NCBI GenBank assembly: GCA_964470025.1
Contig: CAYXZR010000006.1
Span: 1 to 35,912 of the forward strand
Direction of reading: 5' to 3'
Source: an uncultured Gammaproteobacteria bacterium
GTDB lineage: Bacteria > Patescibacteriota > Patescibacteriia > Buchananbacterales > UBA6539
Length of the DNA: 35,912 nt
Shown here: positions 10,106 through 35,912 of the stretch, piece after piece
How the letters are laid out: each line of letters opens with the position of its first letter
How positions within the stretch are numbered: the first letter of the stretch is position 1
Notes under the pieces: model-generated
Told to the model about the DNA's origin: nothing
The model's input: only the letters and a program-made list of their open reading frames with translations
Database searches by the model: none
Made by a program: the position numbers and the translations under genes

Positions 10106-10651
10106 TTACCCGGCTTTAGCTGCAGCTTTACCTGCCTTACGTCGAATAACTTCATCTACATATTTAATACCTTTACCCTTGTATGGCTCTGGTTTTCTAA
10201 ACCCACGAATTTCTGCTGCTACCTGACCAACCTGTTGCTTGCTAATACCGGTGATAGTAATTACGTTTTTCTCTGAGCTAATTTCAATACCGTCTGGTGC
10301 TTTAAATTCAATTGGGTGTGAGTATCCAAGACTTAGAACAAGTACTGACCCTTTCATATCTGCCTTGTACCCAACTCCGTTTACTTCAAACTTTTTTTCA
10401 AATCATTTTGTCACGCCCTCAACCATATTACTGATTAACTGTCGTGAAAGTCCCCATAGTGAGCGCTGTGTCTTGTCGTCTTGACTCTTGATAGTAAGCA
10501 CTACTTCGTTATCTGAAATAGCCACATCAACACGATTGTCAATTGCTTCTTGCAATTCACCTTTTGGGCCTTTAACGGTACAGATACTATCTTTTAGAGA
10601 TACTTCTACTCCGCTTGGGATACTGATTGGTTCTTTTCCGACTCGTGACAT
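10106..10651 (-). CDS. rplF: 50S ribosomal protein L6, single reading frame containing one in-frame TGA (10405-10403)
   Basis: Track ORFs 10403..10651 and 10106..10357 are in the same frame. The 45 nt between the TGA and the second ORF's ATG also read as L6 sequence ([15 protein letters not shown]). The TGA aligns with the Gly of GV(T/S)xGF in E. coli and B. subtilis L6. Confidence 0.9.
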
Positions 10652-17760: not shown

Positions 17761-18021
17761 ATGTTGGGTATATCAGAGGAAAATAAAAGCTGCCTCAAGG
17801 AGAGCCAGACAGACAAACGGTACACCAGAACTCTGATGTGCGTTAGACTATGTTGTACTTCCTTGTTTTAGTTTTGTATTCTCCTTATAGAATGTATCAG
17901 CTGCAAAGGTTTTCCTAGTTGGATCTTTCTTTGTGCTGAGTAATTCTGTCGAGATGGGTTTCATCTCGATTGATGTAGATACAACGTTTGTTATATTCAC
18001 ATCGCTCGAGATGAGCGAATC

Positions 18022-19637: not shown

Positions 19638-19773
19638 AGTATAATTCTTATCTTAGTACTTTTTGAGCAATCTTTTGTAAACCAATCCCCGCTGACGGGC
19701 GAGAACAGATCCTCGTTACTAATAATTTATTTAAAGTGTTTTAATAAAACAATAAAAATTTTGCTTTATACAG

Positions 19774-19795
19774 CCGTAAAATACGTATTTTACGG
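19774..19795. repeat. perfect 22-nt palindrome ccgtaaaatacgtattttacgg in the tuf upstream region
   Basis: The two 11-nt halves are exact reverse complements. Confidence 0.9.
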
Positions 19796-19875
19796 ATTTA
19801 TCAACAAAATACTCCTAGAGTATATAACCAGACGACGAAAATGTCAAGGGTTTTTTGTGAATTTTCTGTGTATTT

Positions 19876-20238
19876 CTACTCGATTGGCTCGAAGTAGTAG
19901 GTACCCTCTTCCTCGTCTGTGTTTTGCTGATTTTCGTCCTGATTTTCAACTACTTTTGGATCAGCCATTTCTGCTGGTTCAAACTGCTTACTTTTGTTTA
20001 ACACCGCACCAACTGACTGCCAAGAATCATCAATATCTGCTAGGTTTTCAGTAGTTTCTGGCACTTCCTCTGCAACAGGTACTTCATGGTGTGGCTGTGC
20101 TACGGCTCCTTCTAATAACACCTCATATTGCTCAAGTGAGACAACAACAAAGCCTTCATGCTGCTCTTTATCAACGATAATACATGGAGAGTCAGTTTTC
20201 TTGGCTAATTTAATTGCTTTTTCAACAATATGAGACAT
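19876..20238 (-). CDS. hypothetical protein with a Phd/YefM-like N-terminal region and acidic disordered C-terminus
   Basis: 120-aa ORF inserted between fusA and tuf. The N-terminal ~45 aa (SPCIIVDKEQHEGFVVVSLEQYEVLLE) resembles the antitoxin-type fold pattern. No adjacent toxin ORF is present. Confidence 0.5.
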   Translation of the reverse strand: MSHIVEKAIKLAKKTDSPCIIVDKEQHEGFVVVSLEQYEVLLEGAVAQPHHEVPVAEEVPETTENLADIDDSWQSVGAVLNKSKQFEPAEMADPKVVENQDENQQNTDEEEGTYYFEPIE

Positions 20239-20255
20239 AGAATTTCGTATTAGTC

Positions 20256-24142: not shown

Positions 24143-24175
24143 ACAAAGAAAAAAGTCAGCGTGTTTGGCTGACTT
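24143..24175 (-). terminator. intrinsic terminator after the PG-binding-domain gene
   Basis: Minus strand reads AAGTCAGC-CAAACAC-GCTGACTT then TTTTTCTTTG. It begins 6 nt after the TGA stop. Confidence 0.7.
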
Positions 24176-24181
24176 AAAAGG

Positions 24182-24553
24182 TCACATGGTTTTAAAGCTA
24201 GGCCAGATTATTCTTTCACCTTTTGAGTTAAAAGTTATAGTCTTGCCCGAACTACCTGGAATTGTATCAAGATTAGAGTCGAAGTATATTTTGAGCATTC
24301 GCTTTGTTTCTTGATCAATTGCACCTGTTTCGGCAACACCTAGCTTTCTTTGAAGACGACACACTGCATTCTCGAGATCTGTATCGAAAATTGATGTATC
24401 CTGACAGCCTGCAAGAAAGCCCATGTGCCGACCAAGCCATACTGCAAGTAACGCACGCAGAAACACTACGGCATTTCCACTACTTCTCTGCTCTGGCTTA
24501 GTAGGATTACATGGAAGAAGTACTGGTGGAAACATCATCTGATCGTTATACAT
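24182..24553 (-). CDS. peptidoglycan-binding-domain (PG_binding_1-like) protein
   Basis: 123 aa with a pattern like SGNAVVFLRALL...DTDLENAVCRLQRKLGVAETGAIDQETKRML. It is the only CDS in the window that ends in TGA. Confidence 0.6.
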   Translation of the reverse strand: MYNDQMMFPPVLLPCNPTKPEQRSSGNAVVFLRALLAVWLGRHMGFLAGCQDTSIFDTDLENAVCRLQRKLGVAETGAIDQETKRMLKIYFDSNLDTIPGSSGKTITFNSKGERIIWPSFKTM

Positions 24554-26540: not shown

Positions 26541-26617
26541 TGGTCGGGCTGGCCGGACTTGAACCGGCGACCTCACGCACCCCATGCGTACGCGCTAGCC
26601 AACTGCGCTACAGCCCG
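26541..26617 (-). tRNA. tRNA-Pro (anticodon GGG), CCA encoded
   Basis: Hand-folded cloverleaf with anticodon loop AUGGGGU. It has C1:G72 and A73, as in bacterial tRNA-Pro. Confidence 0.9.
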
Positions 26618-26925: not shown

Positions 26926-26956
26926 AATAAAAATCCGACAAGAAAATCTTGTCGGA
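26926..26956 (-). terminator. intrinsic terminator after the DAHP synthase gene
   Basis: Minus strand reads TCCGACAAG-ATTTT-CTTGTCGGA followed by TTTTTATTTTG. Confidence 0.75.
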
Positions 26957-26975
26957 TGAAAGAGCAGATAGGATA

Positions 26976-28049
26976 CTACACCAGCATTTCGTATGCTTCT
27001 GCTAGCAAGCTAGCGGTTGCATCCCAATCCAAACATGGGTCAGTGATTGAAGTGCCATACCGCAGCTTGCGCAATGCGTCGGGTGCTGGAGAAAACTTTT
27101 GACTCCCTCCATTAATGTGACTTTCCAGCATGAGGCCCATGATAGTAGGATTGTTCGCACGGCGCTGACGAAGCACTGCTTTGAAAATTCCTGGTTGCGC
27201 AGTTGCGTCTTTACCAGAGTTTGCATGACTGCAGTCAACCATGATGCGGTCATTAACCCCAGCCTCCTGACACTTCATTGCCACTGCAGCTATTTCCTGC
27301 TCGCCGTAGTTTGAGCCACCCGAACCTCCGCGTAAGACGATGTGTCCAAAGCGATTGCCAGCGGTGGTTAGGGTTGAGACATGACCTGCGCCGTTAATAC
27401 CTAGAAAGCAGTGCTTACCAGCTGCAGCTAACATGCCGTGAATGGCAAGATCTACACTACCTCCCGTGCCGTTCTTGAATCCAAATGGCATGGAAAGCCC
27501 GCTTGCCATCTGTCGATGTGTTTGACTTTCAGCAGTGCGCGCTCCAAGGCATGCCCAGCTGATAACATCGGAAGTGTAGGCTGGGACGATCGGGTCCAAG
27601 AACTCGGTGCCGGTTGGCAAGCCCAGTTCATTGATGGCGATGAGGATTTTACGTGCCTGCTGAAACCCCTCTCGCACGTTAAACGAACCATTCAGCCAAG
27701 GATCGTTGATTAAGCCAGTCCAACCAAGTGTAGTACGCGGCTTCTCGAAGTAAGTTCGCATAAGGATTTCCATGCGATCTGCATAAGTCTGACGAAGCTC
27801 AACGAGACGCTCTGCGTAGTCGAGTGCAGCCTTTTCATCATGAATAGAGCATGGCCCCACAAGTACCAGTAACCGATTGTCTTCGCCGGTGATAATACGA
27901 CGAATTGCCTCTCGAGAAGCAGTGACAGTCTCTGCGGCTACATCAGTAATGGGAAGCATCTCAAGCACCCTATCAGGCGGGAGAAGCTCAGTGGTGCCAG
28001 TAATATTGAGATTATTAGTCCTTAAGTGTTCTGCAACTGCATTTGTCAT
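26976..28049 (-). CDS. aroG: 3-deoxy-7-phosphoheptulonate (DAHP) synthase, class I alpha (AroG/F/H type)
   Basis: 357 aa with GPCSIHD, KPRT, GARTAESQTHRQ and DCSHANS motifs, preceded by an AGGAGA SD. The isozyme specificity is not known. Confidence 0.92.
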   Translation of the reverse strand: MTNAVAEHLRTNNLNITGTTELLPPDRVLEMLPITDVAAETVTASREAIRRIITGEDNRLLVLVGPCSIHDEKAALDYAERLVELRQTYADRMEILMRTYFEKPRTTLGWTGLINDPWLNGSFNVREGFQQARKILIAINELGLPTGTEFLDPIVPAYTSDVISWACLGARTAESQTHRQMASGLSMPFGFKNGTGGSVDLAIHGMLAAAGKHCFLGINGAGHVSTLTTAGNRFGHIVLRGGSGGSNYGEQEIAAVAMKCQEAGVNDRIMVDCSHANSGKDATAQPGIFKAVLRQRRANNPTIMGLMLESHINGGSQKFSPAPDALRKLRYGTSITDPCLDWDATASLLAEAYEMLV

Positions 28050-28167
28050 AAGTGTATTCTCCTGACATTGGTGGAAGTGGCGGTACTATGTACTGCGGTT
28101 ACAATTTACTGCTTGTGATTCTTGTGATTGTTGTGCCCTGTAGTTCCTTTTTTAATGTAATGTGCGA

Positions 28168-28199
28168 TAAACAAAAAACTGACCTTTTTTAGACCAGTT
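28168..28199 (-). terminator. attenuator terminator in the DAHP synthase leader
   Basis: Minus strand reads AACTGGTCT-AAAAA-AGGTCAGTT followed by TTTTTTGTTTATC. Confidence 0.65.
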
Positions 28200-28232
28200 G
28201 CTTTGATACGTATTCACGACAAACTAACTGAT

Positions 28233-28286
28233 CTATAGGTCAGTAAAGAAAAAGCTAAAGAAATAGTTAGAATGTTGTGCTTTCAT
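28233..28286 (-). CDS. Phe/Tyr-rich leader peptide MKAQHSNYFFSFFFTDL
   Basis: 17 codons, checked codon by codon. There are 5 Phe in 6 consecutive positions, preceded by Tyr, with a TAG stop at 28235-28233. Confidence 0.7.
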   Translation of the reverse strand: MKAQHSNYFFSFFFTDL

Positions 28287-28296
28287 ATCTATTTTG

Positions 28297-28325
28297 AGCT
28301 TATACCTCAGAGTATGATTTGTCAA
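28297..28325 (-). promoter_or_regulatory. promoter (TTGACA, then -10 TATAAG/TAAGCT)
   Basis: It abuts the leuA terminator T-run and sits ~10 nt upstream of the leader ATG. Confidence 0.45.
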
Positions 28326-28330
28326 GAAAA

Positions 28331-28360
28331 TAAAAAAGGACCGCCAAAATGGTGGTCCTT
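28331..28360 (-). terminator. intrinsic terminator after leuA
   Basis: Minus strand reads AAGGACCACC-ATTTT-GGCGGTCCTT followed by TTTTTATTTTC. Confidence 0.7.
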
Positions 28361-28370
28361 AAAAGAACGA

Positions 28371-30068
28371 TTATCCCTGTGTTTTAAGGACTTTCTTGGA
28401 ACGACTGATGGCAGCGAGAATCGCCTTGATATTTACATTGCTTGAGTTAGTATCAAGCGCAGCACCCCAGACTTCGACATCGCCAAACGTAAGTTTAACA
28501 AACGATACAGCTGCAGCCTCTGAGCCTAAGCCAGTTGTTGAATCGACAAAATCGACCACCTTAAACCCATTAACTCCAAACTCAGCAAGACCATTCACAA
28601 ATGCATTGATTGGGCCATTACCAGTTCCGATGACTTGCTGCTCACTGCCTTCGACATTGATTTTAGCAAAGACAGTCACCTCGTCACCATCTTGGTTACT
28701 AGAGAACTTAACTAAGGTATGACTACCAGTTGGCTGCATAAATTCATCTTTAAACCATGCCATCACCTGCTCTGCTGTTGCTTCGCCTGCATTGTGATCA
28801 AGATATCCCTGAATCACCTGCCTGACAAATGGTTGAGCGGCTTTGGGAATACTAATGCCGTATTGCTCACGCAACACATGTGCAATGCCTCCCTTACCAC
28901 TCTGCGCATTGATACGGATGATTTTTTCAAACATCCTACCGACGTCCGCTGGGTTAATTATCAAATATGGCGCTTTCCAGCTACCATCTGGCTGGGTGGG
29001 ATTCACTAACCCCTTGCTGATTGCATCTTGGTGGGACCCTGAAAATGCAACATAGACAAGTTCTCCCACATATGGATGCCGAGGATCGATAGGCATGCCC
29101 GTAATTCTCACGACAGTTTCAACTATCTGAGAAAGATTACTAAAGTCGTACTCTAAGGGCAGTTCAATCCCCATTGCCATGCAGTTGAGAATCATAATAA
29201 CTAGGTCAACGTTTCCAGTTCGTTCACCGTGTCGAAAGAGTGTACCCTCGACTCGATCTGCGCCAGCAAGCACTGCATATGTTGCTGAAGCAGTTGCCAT
29301 GTCTTGATCGTTATGAGGATGCGCTGAAATTATCACACTCTCTCGATGAGTGAAACTGCGACAGAAGTATTCAAACTTGTCAGCAACTCGGTGAGGCCAC
29401 ATACGCTCAACAGTGGCCGGGAGATTAAATATCATGCGATTGTCAGGAGTTGCTTTGTTCCAGGCTGTAAACACAGCTTCACAAATCTCCAGAGCAAAAT
29501 CGATGTCAGTATCGGTAAATTCTTCTGGTGAGAACTCCAGATTAATCTGACTGCCAGACATCTGATCTGCAAGCATACTGATGAGCTCGACTGCATGAAC
29601 TGCTCGTGAGATTGTACTTTTTCTATCCAGCTGAAATACACCCTGCATATGCAGCTCTGAAGTGGCGATGTAGGCATGAACAATTGCCTGCTTTACGCCT
29701 ACAAGCGATTCAAAGGTTTTGCGGATCAAGTCTTCTCTGCACTGGGTGAGTACAGCGATGGTTACGTCATCAGGGATGTGGCCTTTTTCGATCAAGAGCC
29801 GAATAAACTCATAATCGTCCTGACTTGCCGAAGGAAAGCCAACCTCTATCTCCTTAAACCCAATACCGACAAGCATGTGAAAGTACTCAAGCTTCTGCTC
29901 AGGGCTCATGGGATTTTCGAGTGCTTGATTGCCATCTCGTAAGCACACGGAGGCAAATGTTACATGCGAAAACGCTTCGGCTTCGTTTCTGTCCGGCCAT
30001 GTTCGGTTGCTGAGCTTAACTGGCTGCGGGGGCCTGTACTGAGTGCGGGTAGCGACTGTAGATGTCAT
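28371..30068 (-). CDS. leuA: 2-isopropylmalate synthase, long (LeuA type 2) form
   Basis: 565 aa with LRDGNQA, HPHNDQDMATA and GERTGN motifs and a C-terminal regulatory domain. Confidence 0.88.
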   Translation of the reverse strand: MTSTVATRTQYRPPQPVKLSNRTWPDRNEAEAFSHVTFASVCLRDGNQALENPMSPEQKLEYFHMLVGIGFKEIEVGFPSASQDDYEFIRLLIEKGHIPDDVTIAVLTQCREDLIRKTFESLVGVKQAIVHAYIATSELHMQGVFQLDRKSTISRAVHAVELISMLADQMSGSQINLEFSPEEFTDTDIDFALEICEAVFTAWNKATPDNRMIFNLPATVERMWPHRVADKFEYFCRSFTHRESVIISAHPHNDQDMATASATYAVLAGADRVEGTLFRHGERTGNVDLVIMILNCMAMGIELPLEYDFSNLSQIVETVVRITGMPIDPRHPYVGELVYVAFSGSHQDAISKGLVNPTQPDGSWKAPYLIINPADVGRMFEKIIRINAQSGKGGIAHVLREQYGISIPKAAQPFVRQVIQGYLDHNAGEATAEQVMAWFKDEFMQPTGSHTLVKFSSNQDGDEVTVFAKINVEGSEQQVIGTGNGPINAFVNGLAEFGVNGFKVVDFVDSTTGLGSEAAAVSFVKLTFGDVEVWGAALDTNSSNVNIKAILAAISRSKKVLKTQG

Positions 30069-30103
30069 GATGGAACTTTTTCTCCTATTCCAAGATTGTA
30101 AAG

Positions 30104-30128
30104 ATCAAAAAACCTTCCGAGTGGAAGG
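30104..30128 (-). terminator. attenuator terminator in the leuA leader
   Basis: Minus strand reads CCTTCC-ACTC-GGAAGG followed by TTTTTTGATC. Confidence 0.65.
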
Positions 30129-30157
30129 CTGACTACTGAGTATATTTGCTACAAAAT

Positions 30158-30241
30158 TTACGCATCAATCAAACTTCCACCTTGAGGCTGGCTAAGAAGC
30201 AGGCTGAGCAGAAGTGAATTTTGTGCGTAAGAATAGTTCAT
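30158..30241 (-). CDS. Leu-rich leader peptide MNYSYAQNSLLLSLLLSQPQGGSLIDA
   Basis: 27 codons, verified, with 6 Leu in 7 positions and a TAA stop at 30160-30158. Confidence 0.7.
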   Translation of the reverse strand: MNYSYAQNSLLLSLLLSQPQGGSLIDA

Positions 30242-30254
30242 ATTGCTATTTATC

Positions 30255-30283
30255 AACCTATCTTAGATGGATTATTTTGTCAA
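30255..30283 (-). promoter_or_regulatory. promoter (TTGACA-17-TAGGTT)
   Basis: It abuts the upstream terminator T-run. Confidence 0.4.
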
Positions 30284-30314
30284 ATAAAAAAGCCTTGCTG
30301 GAACAACAAGGCTT
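30284..30314 (-). terminator. intrinsic terminator after the 100-aa ORF
   Basis: Minus strand reads AGCCTTGTTG-TTC-CAGCAAGGCT followed by TTTTTTATT. Confidence 0.7.
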
Positions 30315-30320
30315 GAAATG

Positions 30321-30623
30321 TTACTCATCCTCATCCTTGAGGATATACATAATCTCCGATGGAATCTCCGGCAAGTTGTCACCTAACAAGGTAACAATAT
30401 ATGGGATGCTTCTATCAAGTAATTCTTGGACCATGTGCCTTTGACGACTTCTTTTAGCAATAGGACCGGGCATTTGAACGCGTCTCAACAAAGTATCTGC
30501 TTCCCTAAGCTGCTGAAGAAGTCTTTTCTGAAGATACCCGGGGTCTTGCTCTCTCTGCCATACTGGTGCATTGCCCATAGTCTCTACCTGGACGACGACA
30601 CACGAATCGAACTGTCCTTCCAT
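30321..30623 (-). CDS. hypothetical 100-aa protein under a branched-chain-type attenuator
   Basis: GGAGAG SD plus its own promoter, leader, attenuator and terminator. I recognise no family. Confidence 0.6.
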   Translation of the reverse strand: MEGQFDSCVVVQVETMGNAPVWQREQDPGYLQKRLLQQLREADTLLRRVQMPGPIAKRSRQRHMVQELLDRSIPYIVTLLGDNLPEIPSEIMYILKDEDE

Positions 30624-30654
30624 GAGTAACTCTCCTTAAGATGAAATGAGCGGG

Positions 30655-30683
30655 CAAACAAAAACTAGTCTTTGTGAGACTAG
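30655..30683 (-). terminator. attenuator terminator in the leader of the 100-aa ORF
   Basis: Minus strand reads CTAGTCT-CACAA-AGACTAG followed by TTTTTGTTTG. Confidence 0.65.
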
Positions 30684-30728
30684 AATGTTTCGTTTGCTTT
30701 TTTGTGAAATTTATCGCATCAAAACACC

Positions 30729-30794
30729 CTAGTCGCTTTTGACTAGTACCACCTTAATGATTTGCTTAATCAGATTGTGTGGTTGTGTTTTCAT
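30729..30794 (-). CDS. Ile/Val/Leu/Lys-rich leader peptide MKTQPHNLIKQIIKVVLVKSD
   Basis: 21 codons, verified, with a TAG stop at 30731-30729. The last codons form a CTAGTC/GACTAG hairpin that can swap partners with the terminator arms. Confidence 0.6.
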   Translation of the reverse strand: MKTQPHNLIKQIIKVVLVKSD

Positions 30795-30805
30795 ACAATA
30801 TATTT

Positions 30806-30834
30806 AGCATATACCCGTTAAAAAGATGTGTCAA
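30806..30834 (-). promoter_or_regulatory. promoter (TTGACA-17-TATGCT)
   Basis: It abuts the cimA terminator T-run. Confidence 0.45.
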
Positions 30835-30861
30835 GAAAAAAGACCAAGTAACACTTGGTCT
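30835..30861 (-). terminator. intrinsic terminator after cimA
   Basis: Minus strand reads AGACCAAGT-GTT-ACTTGGTCT followed by TTTTTTC. Confidence 0.7.
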
Positions 30862-30867
30862 GGGTAT

Positions 30868-32409
30868 TTAAGGTGCGGTAGTTAGTCGACCGAGCAATAA
30901 TTTGTAATTAATCATCACTTCGGTAGCACGAATAGCAGCAATAACCTGATCGGTGTGAACTCCCCTTGTTTCAATCCGTACTGAATTGTCCCAGGTGATC
31001 GTTGCTTCAACAGGAGCATCAGTCTGGCCACCAGGTGGAATGTGCGCATCAAAGTCAGATAGTCGAGGGATGCTAAATGGTAATTCTAGCTGCGGCTCAA
31101 TATCTCGCAACGCATTCATGAAGGCATCATAGCCACCTGCCCCAGCAGCATGCGCTTCAAACTCTTTGTCACCTACGGCTATACGAATTGACGCAACAGG
31201 GCGGACTGACCTGTTGGTTGTGATAGTTGCGTGTGTCACCCTGAAAGCATCTTCTACTTCCAGCTTGAGAACTTTAGCAACTATGAATGGTAGATCCTCT
31301 CTGGTTACCGACTCTTTCATGTCACCGCGCCGGATAACTTCATTCAATACCAATGCTCGCTCTTCTGGACTCAGATCAAAACCAAGCTCGGCTACATTAA
31401 ACTCAATATTAGCTCTTCCAGACAGCTTACCTAGGGCATAGTGACGCGATCGACCGAAACGTTGTGGTGCAAGCACGCTGCCGTAGAGATCTCCTTTCTT
31501 GTCACCATCGGCATGTATGCCTGCTGTTTGCGTAAAAGCATTTTTTCCGAGAATTGGACAATTGGTTGCGACCTTTTGCCTACTTGCAGCTTGCACCAAC
31601 GCGCTGACAGCACTAAGCCGTGTTTCATCTACTGCGGTTTGGCGCTCAGTGTGATCACGAATAGCTGCGACCACTTCTGCCTGTGCTGCATTACCAGCGC
31701 GCTCTCCTAATCCATTTACCGTGACATGGACTCCAGCGACTCCACAACGCGCAGCGGCAATAGTGTTTGCAGTTGCAAAGCCGTAATCATTGTGCGCATG
31801 AAACTCAAATGTCAAACGATCATTATATCGCTCAAGTGTTTCTGAGAGAAACTGCTCGACCTGCCAAGGGTTTAATACCCCAAGCGTATCAGGCAACAAC
31901 ACTCGATCAACTTCCATAGTGCAGAGCGCATCAAGTAGTTGCCAAACGTACTCAGAATCATCCTTGATGCCGTTTGACCAATCCTCTAGATACACGTTAA
32001 CTGTTACCCCATGAGAACGTGCGTATGCAACAGTGTCAGTGATATCTTCTATGTGCTGCTCAAGTGACTTGCGCAACTGGCCACTGCAATGCTTACGAGA
32101 GCCTTTGCAAAGTAGATTCATCCGCTGACAGCCTGCGGCAATAAGCCAATTAACTGACAGCTCATGATCTACAAAACTCAGCACTTCAACTCGGTCTTGC
32201 ATTCCCACAGTAAGTGCCCAGTCCATAATGACTCTGACTGCTTGTTGCTCACCGTCGCTGACACGACAAGAAGCGACTTCGATTCGGTCTACTCCAACTT
32301 GTTGCAACAACATTTGTGCAATTGCCAATTTTTCTTCAGCGGCAAATGCAACTCCTTGTGTCTGTTCGCCATCGCGAAGGGTTGTGTCCATGATACTGAT
32401 TGTACTCAT
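30868..32409 (-). CDS. cimA: citramalate synthase / 2-isopropylmalate synthase family enzyme; the Ile-type leader favours CimA
   Basis: 513 aa with TLRDGEQ, HAHNDYGFATAN and GERAGNA motifs and a LeuA-type C-terminal domain. The substrate call rests on the Ile-rich leader and is an inference. Confidence 0.75.
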   Translation of the reverse strand: MSTISIMDTTLRDGEQTQGVAFAAEEKLAIAQMLLQQVGVDRIEVASCRVSDGEQQAVRVIMDWALTVGMQDRVEVLSFVDHELSVNWLIAAGCQRMNLLCKGSRKHCSGQLRKSLEQHIEDITDTVAYARSHGVTVNVYLEDWSNGIKDDSEYVWQLLDALCTMEVDRVLLPDTLGVLNPWQVEQFLSETLERYNDRLTFEFHAHNDYGFATANTIAAARCGVAGVHVTVNGLGERAGNAAQAEVVAAIRDHTERQTAVDETRLSAVSALVQAASRQKVATNCPILGKNAFTQTAGIHADGDKKGDLYGSVLAPQRFGRSRHYALGKLSGRANIEFNVAELGFDLSPEERALVLNEVIRRGDMKESVTREDLPFIVAKVLKLEVEDAFRVTHATITTNRSVRPVASIRIAVGDKEFEAHAAGAGGYDAFMNALRDIEPQLELPFSIPRLSDFDAHIPPGGQTDAPVEATITWDNSVRIETRGVHTDQVIAAIRATEVMINYKLLLGRLTTAP

Positions 32410-32584
32410 GTGCCTGCTCCTGTGGTAGTTTGTGAAAGATCAATTTGAAAAACAAGACAAACAAAAAATCCAGCTGGTGGCTGGACTCTCAAATCGTTTT
32501 GTTCAACGTTTACTAGAAAGCGGCCACCCGTGTAGGCTGGATAATAATGCTAATAATTGAAATGTTAGCGTATTGTGCTTTCAT
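32336..32584 (-). CDS. Ile-rich leader ORF MKAQYANISIISIIIQPTRVAG...; literal frame stays open for 82 codons
   Basis: ATG at 32584. There are 6 Ile in 8 positions. By manual translation the first in-frame stop is TGA at 32338-32336, inside cimA. A TAG-TAA pair (32514-32509) lies one frame off, at the position where a leader stop would be expected. This ORF is not in the supplied track, so it needs re-checking. Confidence 0.45.
32461..32484 (-). terminator. attenuator terminator in the cimA leader
   Basis: Minus strand reads TCCAGC-CACCA-GCTGGA followed by TTTTTTGTTGTC. Confidence 0.6.
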
Positions 32585-32590
32585 ATAATT

Positions 32591-32619
32591 ACTCTATCGC
32601 TTATCACCTATAGTGTCAA
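32591..32619 (-). promoter_or_regulatory. promoter (TTGACA-17-TAGAGT), 6 nt upstream of the leader ATG
   Basis: It abuts the tRNA-operon terminator T-run. The spacing predicts a leaderless or near-leaderless leader ORF. Confidence 0.45.
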
Positions 32620-32623
32620 ATAT

Positions 32624-32661
32624 AAAATAAAAAGCCCAATGAAGGTGGACCTACATTGGGC
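32624..32661 (-). terminator. intrinsic terminator closing the tRNA / structured-RNA unit
   Basis: Minus strand reads GCCCAATG-(12 nt)-CATTGGGC followed by TTTTTATTTT. Confidence 0.7.
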
Positions 32662-32701
32662 AAACTAAGAACAAAAGAACAAAACTACTAAAGAGCAAAT
32701 G

Positions 32702-32783
32702 TGGTCGGGCTAGAAGGAATCGAACCTTCGACCATGTGATGCTAGACTGCATCACACCGCTCTACCGACTGAGCTATAGCCCG
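32702..32783 (-). tRNA. atypical tRNA (82 nt with CCA) with Pro-like acceptor and an 8-9 bp anticodon stem
   Basis: The acceptor (CGGGCTA/TAGCCCG, A73), D arm (GCTC-AGTCGGTA-GAGC) and T arm (GAAGG-TTCGATT-CCTTC) are normal. The anticodon arm is TGTGATGC-AGTCTA-GCATCACA. Confidence 0.6.
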
Positions 32784-32886
32784 AGTGGAGAAAGAGCAGA
32801 TGTGGGGAATCATACTATCATCCACTCTTCCTCCGTGGGTTTGCCGGCGCAACTCTCTATGAAAGCCAGTGCCTGGCAAAAATTTC
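32784..32886 (-). ncRNA. structured spacer: 16-bp imperfect helix plus a small hairpin
   Basis: 32787-32802 pairs with 32819-32834. All three non-Watson-Crick positions are G-U on the minus strand and A-C on the plus strand. Confidence 0.45.
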
Positions 32887-32965
32887 AGGGGATGACAGGA
32901 GTCGAACCTGTGAGCTACTAAGCCACGTTGGCAAAGATACGCTCTAGCAATTAACTAACATCCCC
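32887..32965 (-). pseudogene. degenerate tRNA-Gly(GCC)-like element, no CCA
   Basis: The acceptor (GGGGATG/CATCCCC, U73), T arm (ACAGG-TTCGACT-CCTGT) and the loop heptamer TTGCCAA are all present, and that heptamer is identical to the one in the neighbouring tRNA-Gly. The anticodon and D stems do not pair, and the variable region is 11 nt. Confidence 0.5.
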
Positions 32966-33160
32966 TTTGTTGCGTCCACTACCTGTACAGCTGCCGTGCC
33001 CTGGTAGACGCAATGCTTGGGAACAAAAATTCGACGGGAGGTATGAATACCAGCAAAGAGCTGGTCCAAAAGATACGAGTGAAACTCGATCTCCAGTACA
33101 GACTGGTCCTCCCTTTGCGCTAGCATGAACGACTAAGAGTCGCTGGCATTGCGCAATAAA
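32966..33160 (-). ncRNA. structured spacer: multi-branched fold
   Basis: Helices 32970-79/33004-13, 33036-41/33108-13 (enclosing three 5-bp hairpins), 33115-20/33151-56 and 33129-34/33138-43. Confidence 0.45.
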
Positions 33161-33237
33161 TGGAGCTGCTGACGAGACTCGAACTCGCGACATCTTCCTT
33201 GGCAAGGAAGCGCTCTGACCAACTGAGCTACAGCAGC
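33161..33237 (-). tRNA. tRNA-Gly (anticodon GCC), CCA encoded
   Basis: Clean cloverleaf with loop UUGCCAA and U73. Confidence 0.9.
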
Positions 33238-33465
33238 TCTGAAATTTTTTGGGGAATGGAGTGTTCCAGGTCACCATCCCCCAAAGGTTGCAAACTTGTT
33301 ACTACTTGCAACCTGTTAGAAGCTGAGGTTGATTCCTCAAGAACTCTGTCTTTTGAGTCCGAGCAGCTACAAAGGCGCTCGCTTCCCTGCTCTACTCACG
33401 ATTACTGCTAGCCTGGCTGCGCGACTAACATCATGAGTAGCTTGCACCTGGCGCTGGTGCAAGAT
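33238..33465 (-). ncRNA. structured spacer: seven back-to-back hairpins
   Basis: Helices tile 33251-33462 almost without gaps. The coordinates are listed in the findings. Confidence 0.45.
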
Positions 33466-33542
33466 TGGCACACGTGGCCGGATTCGAACCGACGACAAGC
33501 GCATTGAGTTTTGCGCTGCTCTACCAACTGAGCTACACGTGC
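33466..33542 (-). tRNA. atypical tRNA with an 8-nt anticodon loop (AAACUCAA), G73, CCA encoded
   Basis: GCACGTG-TA-GCTC-AGTTGGTA-GAGC-A-GCGCA-AAACTCAA-TGCGC-TTGTC-GTCGG-TTCGAAT-CCGGC-CACGTGT-G-CCA. All other arms are canonical. Confidence 0.6.
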
Positions 33543-33551
33543 ACTAAAGCT

Positions 33552-33627
33552 TGGAGGACGTGATAGGATTCGAACCTACGACCAATGACTCCCAAAGTCA
33601 CTGCTCTGCCATCTGAGCTACACGTCC
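33552..33627 (-). tRNA. tRNA-Pro (anticodon UGG), CCA encoded, with non-bacterial-type G1:C72/U73 acceptor
   Basis: Cloverleaf with loop UUUGGGA. The acceptor and D arm are near-identical to those of the adjacent 8-nt-loop tRNA. Confidence 0.8.
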
Positions 33628-33914
33628 GGTGAAACTTTAGCGATTTTGAGCCCTCTCTCCGTGGACCGACCACATTTCCCTGCAGCGGAGAGAGGGCTGA
33701 CTGAGCAGGGGTACTGCCTGCAGGGAAATTTTGACTACATTGTCAAAGAAATTGATGGGTAGCGAGTCAGCTATTACGCACTGTTTCAGCTTTGGCTACT
33801 TCTAAGCCACAAGCACTCGCCACCCACCTCCTAGCCACACTATGATGGTATATCCCTTCACGGGGCCAGGAAATCTGTATATAAATATTTCAATTGCGTT
33901 TTTACGCAATTACT
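33628..33914 (-). ncRNA. ~285-nt structured 5' leader of the tRNA unit
   Basis: It contains an 11-bp helix closing a ~47-nt domain (33757-67/33815-25), interleaved perfect 13-bp and 11-bp helices (33649-33728) and a hairpin at 33892-33911. No credible ORF is present. Confidence 0.45.
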
Positions 33915-33943
33915 TTTATATATTATTTTTTACATCGTGTCAA
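33915..33943 (-). promoter_or_regulatory. promoter (TTGACA-17-TATAAA) driving the tRNA / structured-RNA unit
   Basis: Consensus -35 box, 17-nt spacer and near-consensus -10 box. Confidence 0.55.
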
Positions 33944-33950
33944 GTCATAT

Positions 33951-33978
33951 AAAAAAGTCACTGTCGTAACAGTGACTT
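33951..33978 (-). terminator. intrinsic terminator after the hydrolase gene
   Basis: Minus strand reads AAGTCACTG-TTACGA-CAGTGACTT followed by TTTTTTATATG. Confidence 0.75.
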
Positions 33979-33989
33979 AAGGTGCGAGG

Positions 33990-35549
33990 TTAGTAGGAAC
34001 TCCAATCTCCTACTGACGAGGTGTCCGGAGCTTCGAAGTTCGCGTACAGAATCCTGTCCTGCGAAATTGTGAATGAAATACTATTCGCAGTTTCTGATGT
34101 GCTCCAGCCATTAAATGTGGCGCCATCTTCTGGTACTGCGGTTAGCGTGACCATATCGCCGACGTTGTAGACTCCGCCGGGATTTTCTGGTGAAACAAGT
34201 ACATTGCCATTTCCACTTCCGAGAAGATTGACTCTGAGGACCCTTTCTGTCTCAGCAAGTTGAATTGTATGCATCTCACGCATACCATCATCAGATGTAA
34301 AGAAGAATGTCTGACGATAAGCATCGCCGGGGACTTCATATGGTGGGAAGATGTACTCGTCATCAAGCCGAGCCTCGAACCCAAGTTCGCTAGTAAAGCA
34401 GTCTGGGTTGACCGAGTTCACTGCACGATATCTGGAGTTGCGATCAGCTGGTCCGCCACCTAAGTAGTGATTACCACCGGGGACGGCAGTGAATTTCCAA
34501 TTGGCAATCTGCCAGCTGTCTGTATCGCCAGGTACTTGATAGTCATCAATGTCTTCTTGAGCGACTCCTGCGAAGCCAAACAACTTGTCACGGTAATCCC
34601 AGAAGTGCTGCGGGACAACGAGGCCATCGTTTAGTCCATGCATGACATAGACTCTGCTGACTTTATTGCCAAAGGTTGCCGCTAGTCCTGCGTGACGCTG
34701 TGGTGCACGCATTAACCGCTCCATGCTTTTTGTGGTTGTTAGGTCAGTGCTGTTGAGTGACCATGCGTTCACAATCCAGCCGGAGCCGTTGGCGTCACCA
34801 TCTGTACCGAGGGTGTAGCCGTTATTTTGCACGTCGTCTTGCGTCGAGATGAGCGTTAAGCCAGAGCCAGCATATACTTCGGCGAATGCCTTGGGTACTG
34901 CCTGAACAACTTGAAGTGCAAGGTGTGCTCCACCTGAGCCGCCAAGCATGTAAAGGCGTTGACGGTTGAGCGGCTTACCTTGATCTTCGAAATACTGAAG
35001 GGTTGCCTTCACCCCATTAATCACGTCGGCGACTTGAATATCGCCGTAATCATAGGGTGACATGTATCCCATGTTGCGGTAGAAGATTTTCACATAGACG
35101 ATGTCTTTTGTGTCCATCCACACTCGCAGCTCATTGAAGTTTGCATTTGCTGGATCATCAGCAAACACTCCTTGGTTGCTTGGACAGTCGGAAGTTCCGA
35201 TGCCGCCAAGCTCGACATACAAGCCCGTGCTTGCAGTGAGGGTTTCCATGCCGCCTTGAGGCAACACGACTACAGCTGAAATAGCAGCCGGGGTCTGTTG
35301 GCCGTCAGAGGAGCAGTTTGCAAATAGCCTTGAATCTGTGGCACCAGGATCACTGGGAACCTGCGACTCAAAAGTCAGATGCACTTTTGGATACACTGCC
35401 GGGGCAGACTTGCGTTGCACAATTGGGTTGATCTGTGGATCAAACTCAGGGACATAAAATATTTTTCCCTGAGCTTGAACGATGGCAGTCTGGAAAAGCC
35501 AGACAAGGGTTGCAAGGATTGTCATAATATAAAAGAGCGACTGCTTCAT
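33990..35549 (-). CDS. secreted alpha/beta-hydrolase (esterase/peptidase-like) with C-terminal divergent InlB B-repeat-like domain
   Basis: 519 aa with a signal peptide ending AQA-QG and a GxSxG nucleophile elbow (GGSGG). HGLNDGLVVP resembles the Asp/His region. The C-terminus LLGSGNGNVLVSP...VTLTAVPEDGATFNGWS matches the bacterial repeat pattern. Confidence 0.7.
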   Translation of the reverse strand: MKQSLFYIMTILATLVWLFQTAIVQAQGKIFYVPEFDPQINPIVQRKSAPAVYPKVHLTFESQVPSDPGATDSRLFANCSSDGQQTPAAISAVVVLPQGGMETLTASTGLYVELGGIGTSDCPSNQGVFADDPANANFNELRVWMDTKDIVYVKIFYRNMGYMSPYDYGDIQVADVINGVKATLQYFEDQGKPLNRQRLYMLGGSGGAHLALQVVQAVPKAFAEVYAGSGLTLISTQDDVQNNGYTLGTDGDANGSGWIVNAWSLNSTDLTTTKSMERLMRAPQRHAGLAATFGNKVSRVYVMHGLNDGLVVPQHFWDYRDKLFGFAGVAQEDIDDYQVPGDTDSWQIANWKFTAVPGGNHYLGGGPADRNSRYRAVNSVNPDCFTSELGFEARLDDEYIFPPYEVPGDAYRQTFFFTSDDGMREMHTIQLAETERVLRVNLLGSGNGNVLVSPENPGGVYNVGDMVTLTAVPEDGATFNGWSTSETANSISFTISQDRILYANFEAPDTSSVGDWSSY

Positions 35550-35589
35550 CGAAGTTCTCTCCTGTGTTGAGTTTTTTGAAGCTACCTAA

Positions 35590-35618
35590 CTTATACCATA
35601 AATAAAGCAAAAAATCAA
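35590..35618 (-). promoter_or_regulatory. extended -10 promoter (TTGATT-17-TGGTATAAG)
   Basis: It lies ~40 nt upstream of the hydrolase ATG, and an AGGAGAG SD follows. Confidence 0.45.
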
Positions 35619-35662
35619 TACCTGACTGCTATTTTATTAGTTTAATTAGGTTTTACGAGGTT

Positions 35663-35912
35663 TTATTGAGGATTTTTTGCCTGCTCAGGAGGTGCTGGCT
35701 TATTGTCTGGAGCTGGTACTTCCTGTGTTTCTTCAGGATACTCACAACTGTCATCATCTTGGGTAGCATCCGCGTTATAGTTAGTTGCCTCTTGGTCAGT
35801 ACAACCAAGGATTGGGTCTGGGGTTTCTTCAGGAGCAGGAGCAGGTGTTGGCGATTCTTCTTCAGGATACTCACAACTGTCATCATCTTGGGTAGCATCC
35901 GCGTTATAGTTA
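35663..35912 (-). CDS. 3' end of a secreted repeat protein (...GCTDQEATNYNADATQDDDSCEYPEE...), 5' end outside the window
   Basis: The frame is open from the window edge to TAA at 35665-35663. It holds two copies of NYNADATQDDDSCEYPEE 43 aa apart. Track ORF 35653..35898 is a different, low-complexity frame. Confidence 0.6.
   Translation of the reverse strand, partial: NYNADATQDDDSCEYPEEESPTPAPAPEETPDPILGCTDQEATNYNADATQDDDSCEYPEETQEVPAPDNKPAPPEQAKNPQ
35731..35783. repeat. 53-nt exact direct repeat, copy 1 (copy 2 at 35860-35912)
   Basis: Identical sequence cttcaggatactcacaactgtcatcatcttgggtagcatccgcgttatagtta, with a 129-nt period. Confidence 0.9.

Follow-up and report, generated by a model that had tools for sequence, protein, structure and literature searches.

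The stretch of DNA analysed in this study comprises 35,912 nt (in the following termed the window) and carries all of its large open reading frames (ORFs) that resemble real genes on the minus strand. Among these genes is rplF, which is embedded in the usual S8-L6-L18-S5 gene order and whose coding sequence contains a single interruption by a TGA codon (Table 1). Both ORFs flanking this codon belong to a single frame, which remains unchanged across the TGA and which is terminated by a TAA at 10108..10106. The initial annotation of the locus had described an in-frame TGA in rplF and had proposed a read-through translation; the former is recovered in our analysis at codon 83 and the latter is identical to our translation. 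The read-through product aligns end to end with uL6 proteins of Patescibacteria, and its residues 1-179 align with the uL6 chains of solved structures with an E-value of about 1e-52, with a Gly found at the position of codon 83. In light of its similarity over the full length and the presence of the family motifs, the product of rplF is ribosomal protein uL6 (Pfam PF00347). The 15 codons following the TGA retain the family-invariant residues E89, N91, G92, V93, G94 and Y95, thus confirming the view that the region 3' of the interruption still encodes L6, and their intact state implies that the change is either very recent or not real. L6, which is essential as established for E. coli rplF, is the sole interrupted gene in the window, and a second copy of rplF was not found within its boundaries. 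None of the remaining 44 ORFs shows an interruption, and wherever the fetched loci contain a relative, the alignment covers most or all of the ORF.

Table 1. Features of the window discussed in the text (nt, nucleotides; aa, amino acids).
Feature	Position	Strand	Remarks
rplF (ribosomal protein uL6)	10651..10106	-	181 codons + TAA; one interruption, at codon 83
In-frame TGA, codon 83 of rplF	10405..10403	-	'tca' on the plus strand; Gly in 130/135 relatives
Codon 88 of rplF, TTT (Phe)	10388..10390	-	Leu in 135/135 relatives; 15 nt downstream of the TGA
50-aa ORF	17848-18000		In rpsJ-rplC spacer; no family match
Acidic 120-aa ORF	19876-20238	-	In fusA-tuf spacer; TAG stop; no Pfam match
Intrinsic-terminator hairpin, AAGTCAGC..GCTGACTT + T-run	24143..24175	-	8 bp; starts 6 nt after the TGA of the PG_binding_1 gene
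PG_binding_1-domain gene, 123 aa	24553..24182	-	Pfam PF01471, 28.6 bits (cut-off 23); stop TGA at 24184..24182
Phe-rich leader, MKAQHSNYFFSFFFTDL	5' of DAHP synthase (26976-28049)	-	Terminator hairpin
Leu-rich leader, MNYSYAQNSLLLSLLLSQPQGGSLIDA	5' of isopropylmalate synthase (28371-30068)	-	Terminator hairpin
Ile-rich leader, MKAQYANISIISIIIQPTRVAAF	5' of second LeuA/CimA-like synthase (30868-32409)	-	Terminator hairpin
Aberrant cloverleaf	32702-32783	-	9-bp anticodon stem; 6-nt loop AGUCUA; A73; CCA; read as Cys-GCA by ARAGORN
Aberrant cloverleaf	32887-32965	-	tRNA score 27.3 bits; 22-nt anticodon region in place of 15 nt; no CCA
tRNA-Gly, anticodon GCC, U73	33161..33237	-	Canonical; only glycine tRNA in the window
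Non-canonical tRNA	33466..33542	-	6-bp anticodon stem; 8-nt loop AAACUCAA; G73; encoded CCA

The position of the interruption is occupied by Gly in nearly all relatives, where it is encoded by GGT (62), GGC (33), GGA (29) or GGG (6), and the earlier assignment of the TGA to a conserved Gly of L6 is thus corroborated by 130 of 135 sequences and by the solved uL6 structures. Neither a TGA nor a stop codon of any other kind is found at this site in any of the 135 relatives, none of which contains a Trp at the same position. Among the Gly codons, GGA is the one-step precursor of TGA, from which it differs by a G to T exchange in the first codon position. Since GGA accounts for about 20% of all one-step precursors of TGA in the window (215 of 1,086), the location of the TGA on a Gly provides about 5-fold evidence for its decoding as Gly, and no more. 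A second deviation is found in close proximity at codon 88, where the replacement of Leu by Phe (L88F) is equally unique to the window. Across 17 conserved genes, each of which was compared with at least 95 relatives, 481 columns show a conservation of 95% or more. The window deviates at 6 of these columns, and codons 83 and 88 of rplF account for two of the six. Both codons, which flank a run of seven A in an A/T-rich stretch, are separated from a plausible ancestor by the change of one base to T (GGA to TGA and either TTG, TTA or CTT to TTT). With the TGA taken as given, a chance of roughly 0.05 is obtained for a distance of five codons or less to any of the other five deviations, and the presence of L88F next to it is more suggestive of a locally changed patch than of a site of adaptive recoding. 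A chimeric join at L6 was considered and rejected, as the loci of the best relatives are identical on both sides of the gene.

To place this interruption into a wider context, we inspected a control set drawn from 160 public loci, which comprises 2,597 orthologous genes and 446,238 aligned codons. In this set, neither an internal in-frame TGA nor any other same-frame nonsense codon was detected, and the five genes that are broken are all split by frameshifts. A routine artefact is thus not a free explanation for the TGA in rplF. No split L6 was found among the relatives, and when the N-terminal 82 aa of L6 were used as query, the only match was the fragment of the window itself.

Within the 45 genes and 10,317 codons of the window, the TGA of rplF is the only one found in frame, as the initial annotation had stated for the conserved coding sequence, and it would constitute one of about 750 Gly codons. 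As positive control, a genuine code-25 contig with a GC content of 40% (L162, JGI Ga0494705_0000096) was subjected to the identical pipeline. In this contig, in-frame TGA codons are found in 19 out of 19 of the same genes. The 3,340 aligned codons contain a total of 65 TGA, of which 49 are located on Gly, and 23% of the conserved Gly columns are occupied by TGA. The density of TGA in the window is thus about 200-fold below the one of a code-25 ribosomal cluster, and the many Gly-aligned UGA codons spread across most genes, which are the hallmark of table 25, are absent. The stop codons of the window include about 37 TAA, 10 TAG and almost no TGA, with no TGA stop found among its ribosomal and translation genes. 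In the ten closest loci, TGA terminates 7 out of 226 of these genes (about 3%), from which about one case would be expected in the window, and many code-11 genomes contain no TGA stop in the 20-29 genes of the ribosomal cluster. Since such clusters often lack TGA stops in genomes using code 11, their absence is uninformative, and the scarcity of TGA stops, which is normal for the cluster, was rejected as evidence for reassignment. For the same reason, the absence of TGA stops in ribosomal-protein clusters should not be used for calling table 25 or table 4. The closest relatives of the window end the genes of L16, ScpA and Map exactly at a TGA.

A TGA that serves as terminator is found in the window itself, at the end of a gene encoding a PG_binding_1 domain. 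This gene is preceded by its own AAGGA ribosome-binding site and directly followed by the hairpin of an intrinsic terminator (Table 1). A similar layout is found for the genes ending at 30321, 30868, 33990 and 26976, where terminators are located at distances of 6, 6, 11 and 18 nt (in ascending order) from the TAA or TAG stops. If the TGA of the PG_binding_1 gene were read as Gly, translation would run through the terminator. Its correlation with the native part of the window (r = 0.89 for tetranucleotides and r = 0.88 for the codon-usage profile RSCU) and its location in a segment that by composition and codon usage matches the native flank of the ribosomal cluster assign the gene to the same background as rplF. 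A search for homologues of this gene that would confirm its C-terminus returned none, and the C-terminus is thus defined by the terminator, which is also the basis on which we take the TGA as evidence of termination at this codon in the genome, where UGA would remain unused as stop in table 25. A terminator immediately following a TGA could in general serve as quick local test for the role of this codon as stop.

In a comparison with public sequences, Parcubacteria-type Patescibacteria are the closest relatives of the window. The best matches of its L6 in a collection of 5.8 billion proteins reach an identity of only 68%, with labels of Buchanan-, Falkow-, Uhr- and Doudnabacteria, and the identity is 62% or less in GTDB species genomes and 73% or less for SecY in JGI metagenomes. 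Averaged over as many as 29 genes, the identity is 58-61% for the closest loci (L081-L092 and L002) and 55-57% for named Komeili-, Uhr- and Magasanikbacteria. The mean identity to the code-25 contig L162 is 42%. The named best matches are Komeili-, Uhr-, Magasanik-, Buchanan- and Falkowbacteria. We have searched for a close relative with the same TGA by means of the full-length L6, the GTDB genomes, SecY in the JGI metagenomes and the N-terminal L6 fragment, and found none. Within Patescibacteria, the use of UGA as Gly is reportedly confined to the Gracilibacteria/JAEDAM01 lineage (PMC13293708, PMC11393006), whereas a single independent case of UGA as Trp has been described for the family JAKLIH01 of the order UBA6257 (PMC13092985). 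Judged from the identity values, the organism of the window would be placed outside of Gracilibacteria/JAEDAM01.

The window was also inspected for components that could mediate the decoding of UGA. Besides tRNA-Gly(GCC), its canonical tRNAs are tRNA-Pro(GGG) and tRNA-Pro(UGG), and within the 35,912 nt neither a canonical tRNA(UCA) nor a tRNA-Trp is encoded. None of the ORFs of these 36 kb that were compared with Pfam corresponds to a release factor, and the remaining large ORFs align with genes from the ribosomal or translation cluster of relatives. On the minus strand, a tRNA cluster at 32702-33627 contains tRNA-Pro(UGG) and tRNA-Gly(GCC) next to three cloverleaves whose anticodon arms are aberrant. 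The latter form stable folds (z = -2 to -4.5) and are candidates for pseudogenes, decoys or non-canonical decoders. The loop of one of them, the 8-nt-loop tRNA at 33466..33542, contains the trinucleotide U-C-A, which as anticodon would leave four nucleotides on its 5' and one on its 3' side, and ARAGORN reads the same loop as four-base anticodon ACUC. An analogy to mitochondrial tRNA-Thr1, which likewise has an 8-nt loop (PMC3113583), would give CUC as the anticodon, from the position of the extra nucleotide in that loop. As a reader of UGA this tRNA was rejected, based on its loop geometry, the presence of G73 instead of U73 and its location in a segment of foreign composition. Its anticodon arm was also used for a pattern search of viral contigs, which did not yield a match.

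The immediate surroundings of the TGA in rplF are equally devoid of recoding signals. Neither a SECIS element nor any other Rfam family was detected near the codon even at E <= 10, and the fold of the downstream sequence is unremarkable (z = -1.03). With homologues carrying a Gly, the site is not that of a selenocysteine, and in light of the missing structure and the lack of a stop in all 135 relatives, it does not qualify as programmed readthrough. Frameshifting at A_AAA_TGA was rejected, as a shift by -1 would lead into ATG ATT TGA and a shift by +1 would encounter a TAA within eight codons. The first in-frame start past the TGA is the ATG of Met99, which is preceded by an AAGG motif. A split L6 with a restart at this position was rejected, as it would lose the invariant NGVGY strand.

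In the interpretation that we favour, the window would harbour the ordinary rplF of a Patescibacterium using the standard code (table 11), in which a one-off G to T exchange has turned the GGA codon of a Gly into TGA. The TGA would most likely reflect a defect in the assembled consensus, either in form of a local error patch or as a minority or aberrant allele that was picked by the assembler, and it is probably not decoded by the cell. To a defect of the consensus or a non-fixed allele as explanation of the TGA we assign a probability of about 0.58, and we infer that the living population either lacks the substitution or has not fixed it. This interpretation is supported by the uniqueness of the TGA in the window, by the GGN codons of the relatives, none of which has a TGA at the site, by the use of TGA as stop in the closest, Parcubacteria-type relatives, by the termination of a gene of the window at TGA, by the intact codons downstream of the interruption, by the location of L88F only 15 nt away and by the fact that no recoding apparatus was seen. 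The features are shared with nonsense variants that originate from metagenome assembly, consensus building or populations, namely a lone substitution that is absent from relatives and surrounded by intact codons, and a second unique change in its vicinity. A difference is that the same-frame type is rare in these genes, as illustrated by its absence in the controls, where all broken genes result from frameshifts. Further observations argue against a defect. Apart from the TGA, the window is clean, as it contains 44 intact genes and lacks frameshifts. The source contig, whose genes were called with table 11, spans 47,913 bp, a length that implies reasonable coverage, and random errors of single reads would then seldom be carried into the consensus. 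Moreover, the TGA resides on a Gly, as predicted for UGA decoded as Gly, with the 5-fold weight specified above.

The clean assembly and the long contig, which argue against a random consensus error, as well as the occurrence of two unique changes within 16 nt and the lack of a visible UGA-decoding apparatus, would also be explained by a real nonsense allele, where L6 would end at residue 82 owing to a recent exchange of GGA to TGA, to which L88F may have been coupled in a single multi-nucleotide event. The affected copy would be non-functional and represent either a deleterious variant in the population or a redundant copy. We regard such an allele as rather unlikely in light of the essential role of L6 and the absence of a second rplF in the window. 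Moreover, the rest of the gene does not show any decay, with its invariant residues being kept and only one other deviation in a conserved column, and there is no usable restart, since a start at Met99 would drop the NGVGY strand. The intact downstream codons and the interruption of an essential gene in an otherwise clean contig would alternatively be compatible with a readthrough of a UGA that is still a stop, at a level sufficient for L6, by either a near-cognate tRNA such as tRNA-Trp, including variants with 4-bp stems, or a suppressor encoded elsewhere. UGA is the leakiest stop codon in bacteria, and the window contains an unusual tRNA cluster. In E. coli, variants of tRNA-Trp(CCA) with 4-bp anticodon stems do indeed read through UGA (PMC13092985), and the site in rplF would resemble this system in its decoding of UGA at some frequency while the codon is still used as stop. 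In contrast to this system, the window encodes no such tRNA and offers neither a conserved site, given that a stop is found in none of the 135 relatives, nor a stimulatory structure or context. The stop in rplF is found in the context UGA-U, which in E. coli mediates efficient termination. A tRNA-Trp would also place a Trp at the near-invariant Gly, leakage at the percent level cannot supply a highly expressed ribosomal protein that is required in stoichiometric amounts, and the 8-nt-loop tRNA does not present UCA, contains G73 and is located in a foreign segment. Readthrough as source of functional L6 thus appears improbable.

A nascent or low-frequency reassignment of UGA to Gly, similar to table 25 and located in Patescibacteria outside of Gracilibacteria/JAEDAM01, is a very distant prospect. 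It would account for the TGA on a near-invariant Gly and for the fact that none of the ribosomal and translation genes in the window ends at TGA. It would not be without precedent, as at least two changes in the meaning of UGA are on record for Patescibacteria, to Gly in JAEDAM01 and to Trp in JAKLIH01. The window shares with the organisms using table 25 (SR1/Absconditabacteria and BD1-5/Gracilibacteria, GTDB class JAEDAM01) the UGA at a conserved Gly of a ribosomal protein and its origin from a member of Patescibacteria. It differs in the number of such codons, with a single TGA compared to their presence in every gene of the code-25 control, in its TGA-terminated gene with a terminator directly after, in the lack of a visible tRNA-Gly(UCA), with the sole Gly tRNA of the window being GCC, and in its much higher identity to relatives that use TGA as stop and that all lack a TGA at the site. 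The scarcity of TGA stops, as described, is a normal property of the cluster, and new sense codons would be expected to appear first in weakly expressed genes, which makes an invariant residue of an essential protein an unlikely place. The suggestion of table 25 or an early reassignment contained in the initial annotation has thus not found support, given the TGA stop in the window, the large deficit in TGA codons, the relatives with TGA stops but without TGA at the site and the absence of a usable tRNA(UCA) in the window, whereas the base-call error that was offered as another option is favoured by the evidence. The window does not comply with table 4 either, the code of Mycoplasmatales, several endosymbionts and the newly described family JAKLIH01. 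With JAKLIH01 it shares that the meaning of UGA is at stake in Patescibacteria outside of Gracilibacteria; however, in JAKLIH01 the signal at Trp positions is strong and extends over the genome, and two of four genomes contain a tRNA(UCA) (PMC13092985), whereas the sole TGA of the window aligns with Gly and none with Trp, a tRNA-Trp is not found within the window and TGA still terminates a gene. We would give equally little credence to the view that a Parcubacteria-type Patescibacterium terminates at UGA yet occasionally decodes it as Gly or another residue, by a suppressor-type tRNA encoded elsewhere or, conceivably, by an aberrant tRNA of the cluster at 32.7-33.6 kb. Effectively refuted are the insertion of selenocysteine and the expression of L6 as two polypeptides comprising residues 1-82 and 99-181. 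UGA is the codon for selenocysteine, the in-frame ATG of Met99 follows an AAGG motif, and the L6 fold consists of two similar halves, which we take to meet about where the TGA is located. Yet, there is neither a SECIS element nor a significant hairpin, the aligned residue is Gly and not Cys, and a split would delete E89, N91, G92, V93, G94 and Y95, which are nevertheless kept in the DNA, with no relative showing a split protein.

If the TGA were decoded, the locus would capture stop-codon reassignment at its ambiguous-intermediate stage, of which snapshots are rare. It would be the third and independent change of UGA in Patescibacteria, in a lineage that is separate from both known ones, with its first use as sense codon in rplF, an essential and highly expressed gene. 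For annotation, rplF should be marked as interrupted or flagged, and the contig should not be re-translated with table 25.

Public collections contain many L6 'fragments' of 82-88 aa, and four contigs were inspected as potential repeats of the site and rejected. L162 is a code-25 genome whose genes were called with table 11, leading to the shredding of all its ribosomal genes, and its TGA is located at G92 and not at G83. L161 is a GC-rich contig that is full of frameshifts, and L163 contains a junction of L6, at residue ~70-82, with a dnaE gene of opposite orientation. L164 constitutes a contig-end artefact, with the sequence GGC TAG and an end 5 nt after an 82-aa L6 ORF, and a second contig that ends 5 nt past an 82-aa L6 ORF is apparently alike.

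The composition of the window shifts near ~26540, at the gene of tRNA-Pro(GGG) (26541-26617), as found in a comparison of the segments 1-26540 and 26950-35912. The left 26 kb have a GC content of about 0.40 and a GC3 of about 0.30, with most ribosomal genes lacking a Shine-Dalgarno motif. In contrast, the 9 kb on the right show a GC content of 0.46-0.47, a GC3 of 0.45 and strong AGGAG ribosome-binding sites, and their tetranucleotide correlation with the rest is only 0.62-0.71. The boundary may mark an island acquired by horizontal transfer or, alternatively, a chimeric join of the assembly at a tRNA gene. On its right side, the minus strand contains three leader-peptide attenuators (28050-28370, 30069-30320 and 32410-32700), in each of which a short ORF is followed by a terminator hairpin. 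The Ile-rich leader suggests that the LeuA/CimA-like synthase downstream of it might be a citramalate synthase. The presence of attenuated amino-acid biosynthesis beside a ribosomal cluster of Patescibacteria is unexpected.

Within the ribosomal part of the window, two spacers are unusually long. The fusA-tuf spacer of the str operon (19638-20255, minus strand) extends over 618 nt and contains an acidic ORF (Table 1), which is followed by a promoter-like TTGACA...TATACT site ahead of tuf. The spacer between rpsJ and rplC (17761-18021) spans 261 nt, thus exceeding the usual length of the S10-L3 junction, and accommodates a small ORF of 50 aa.
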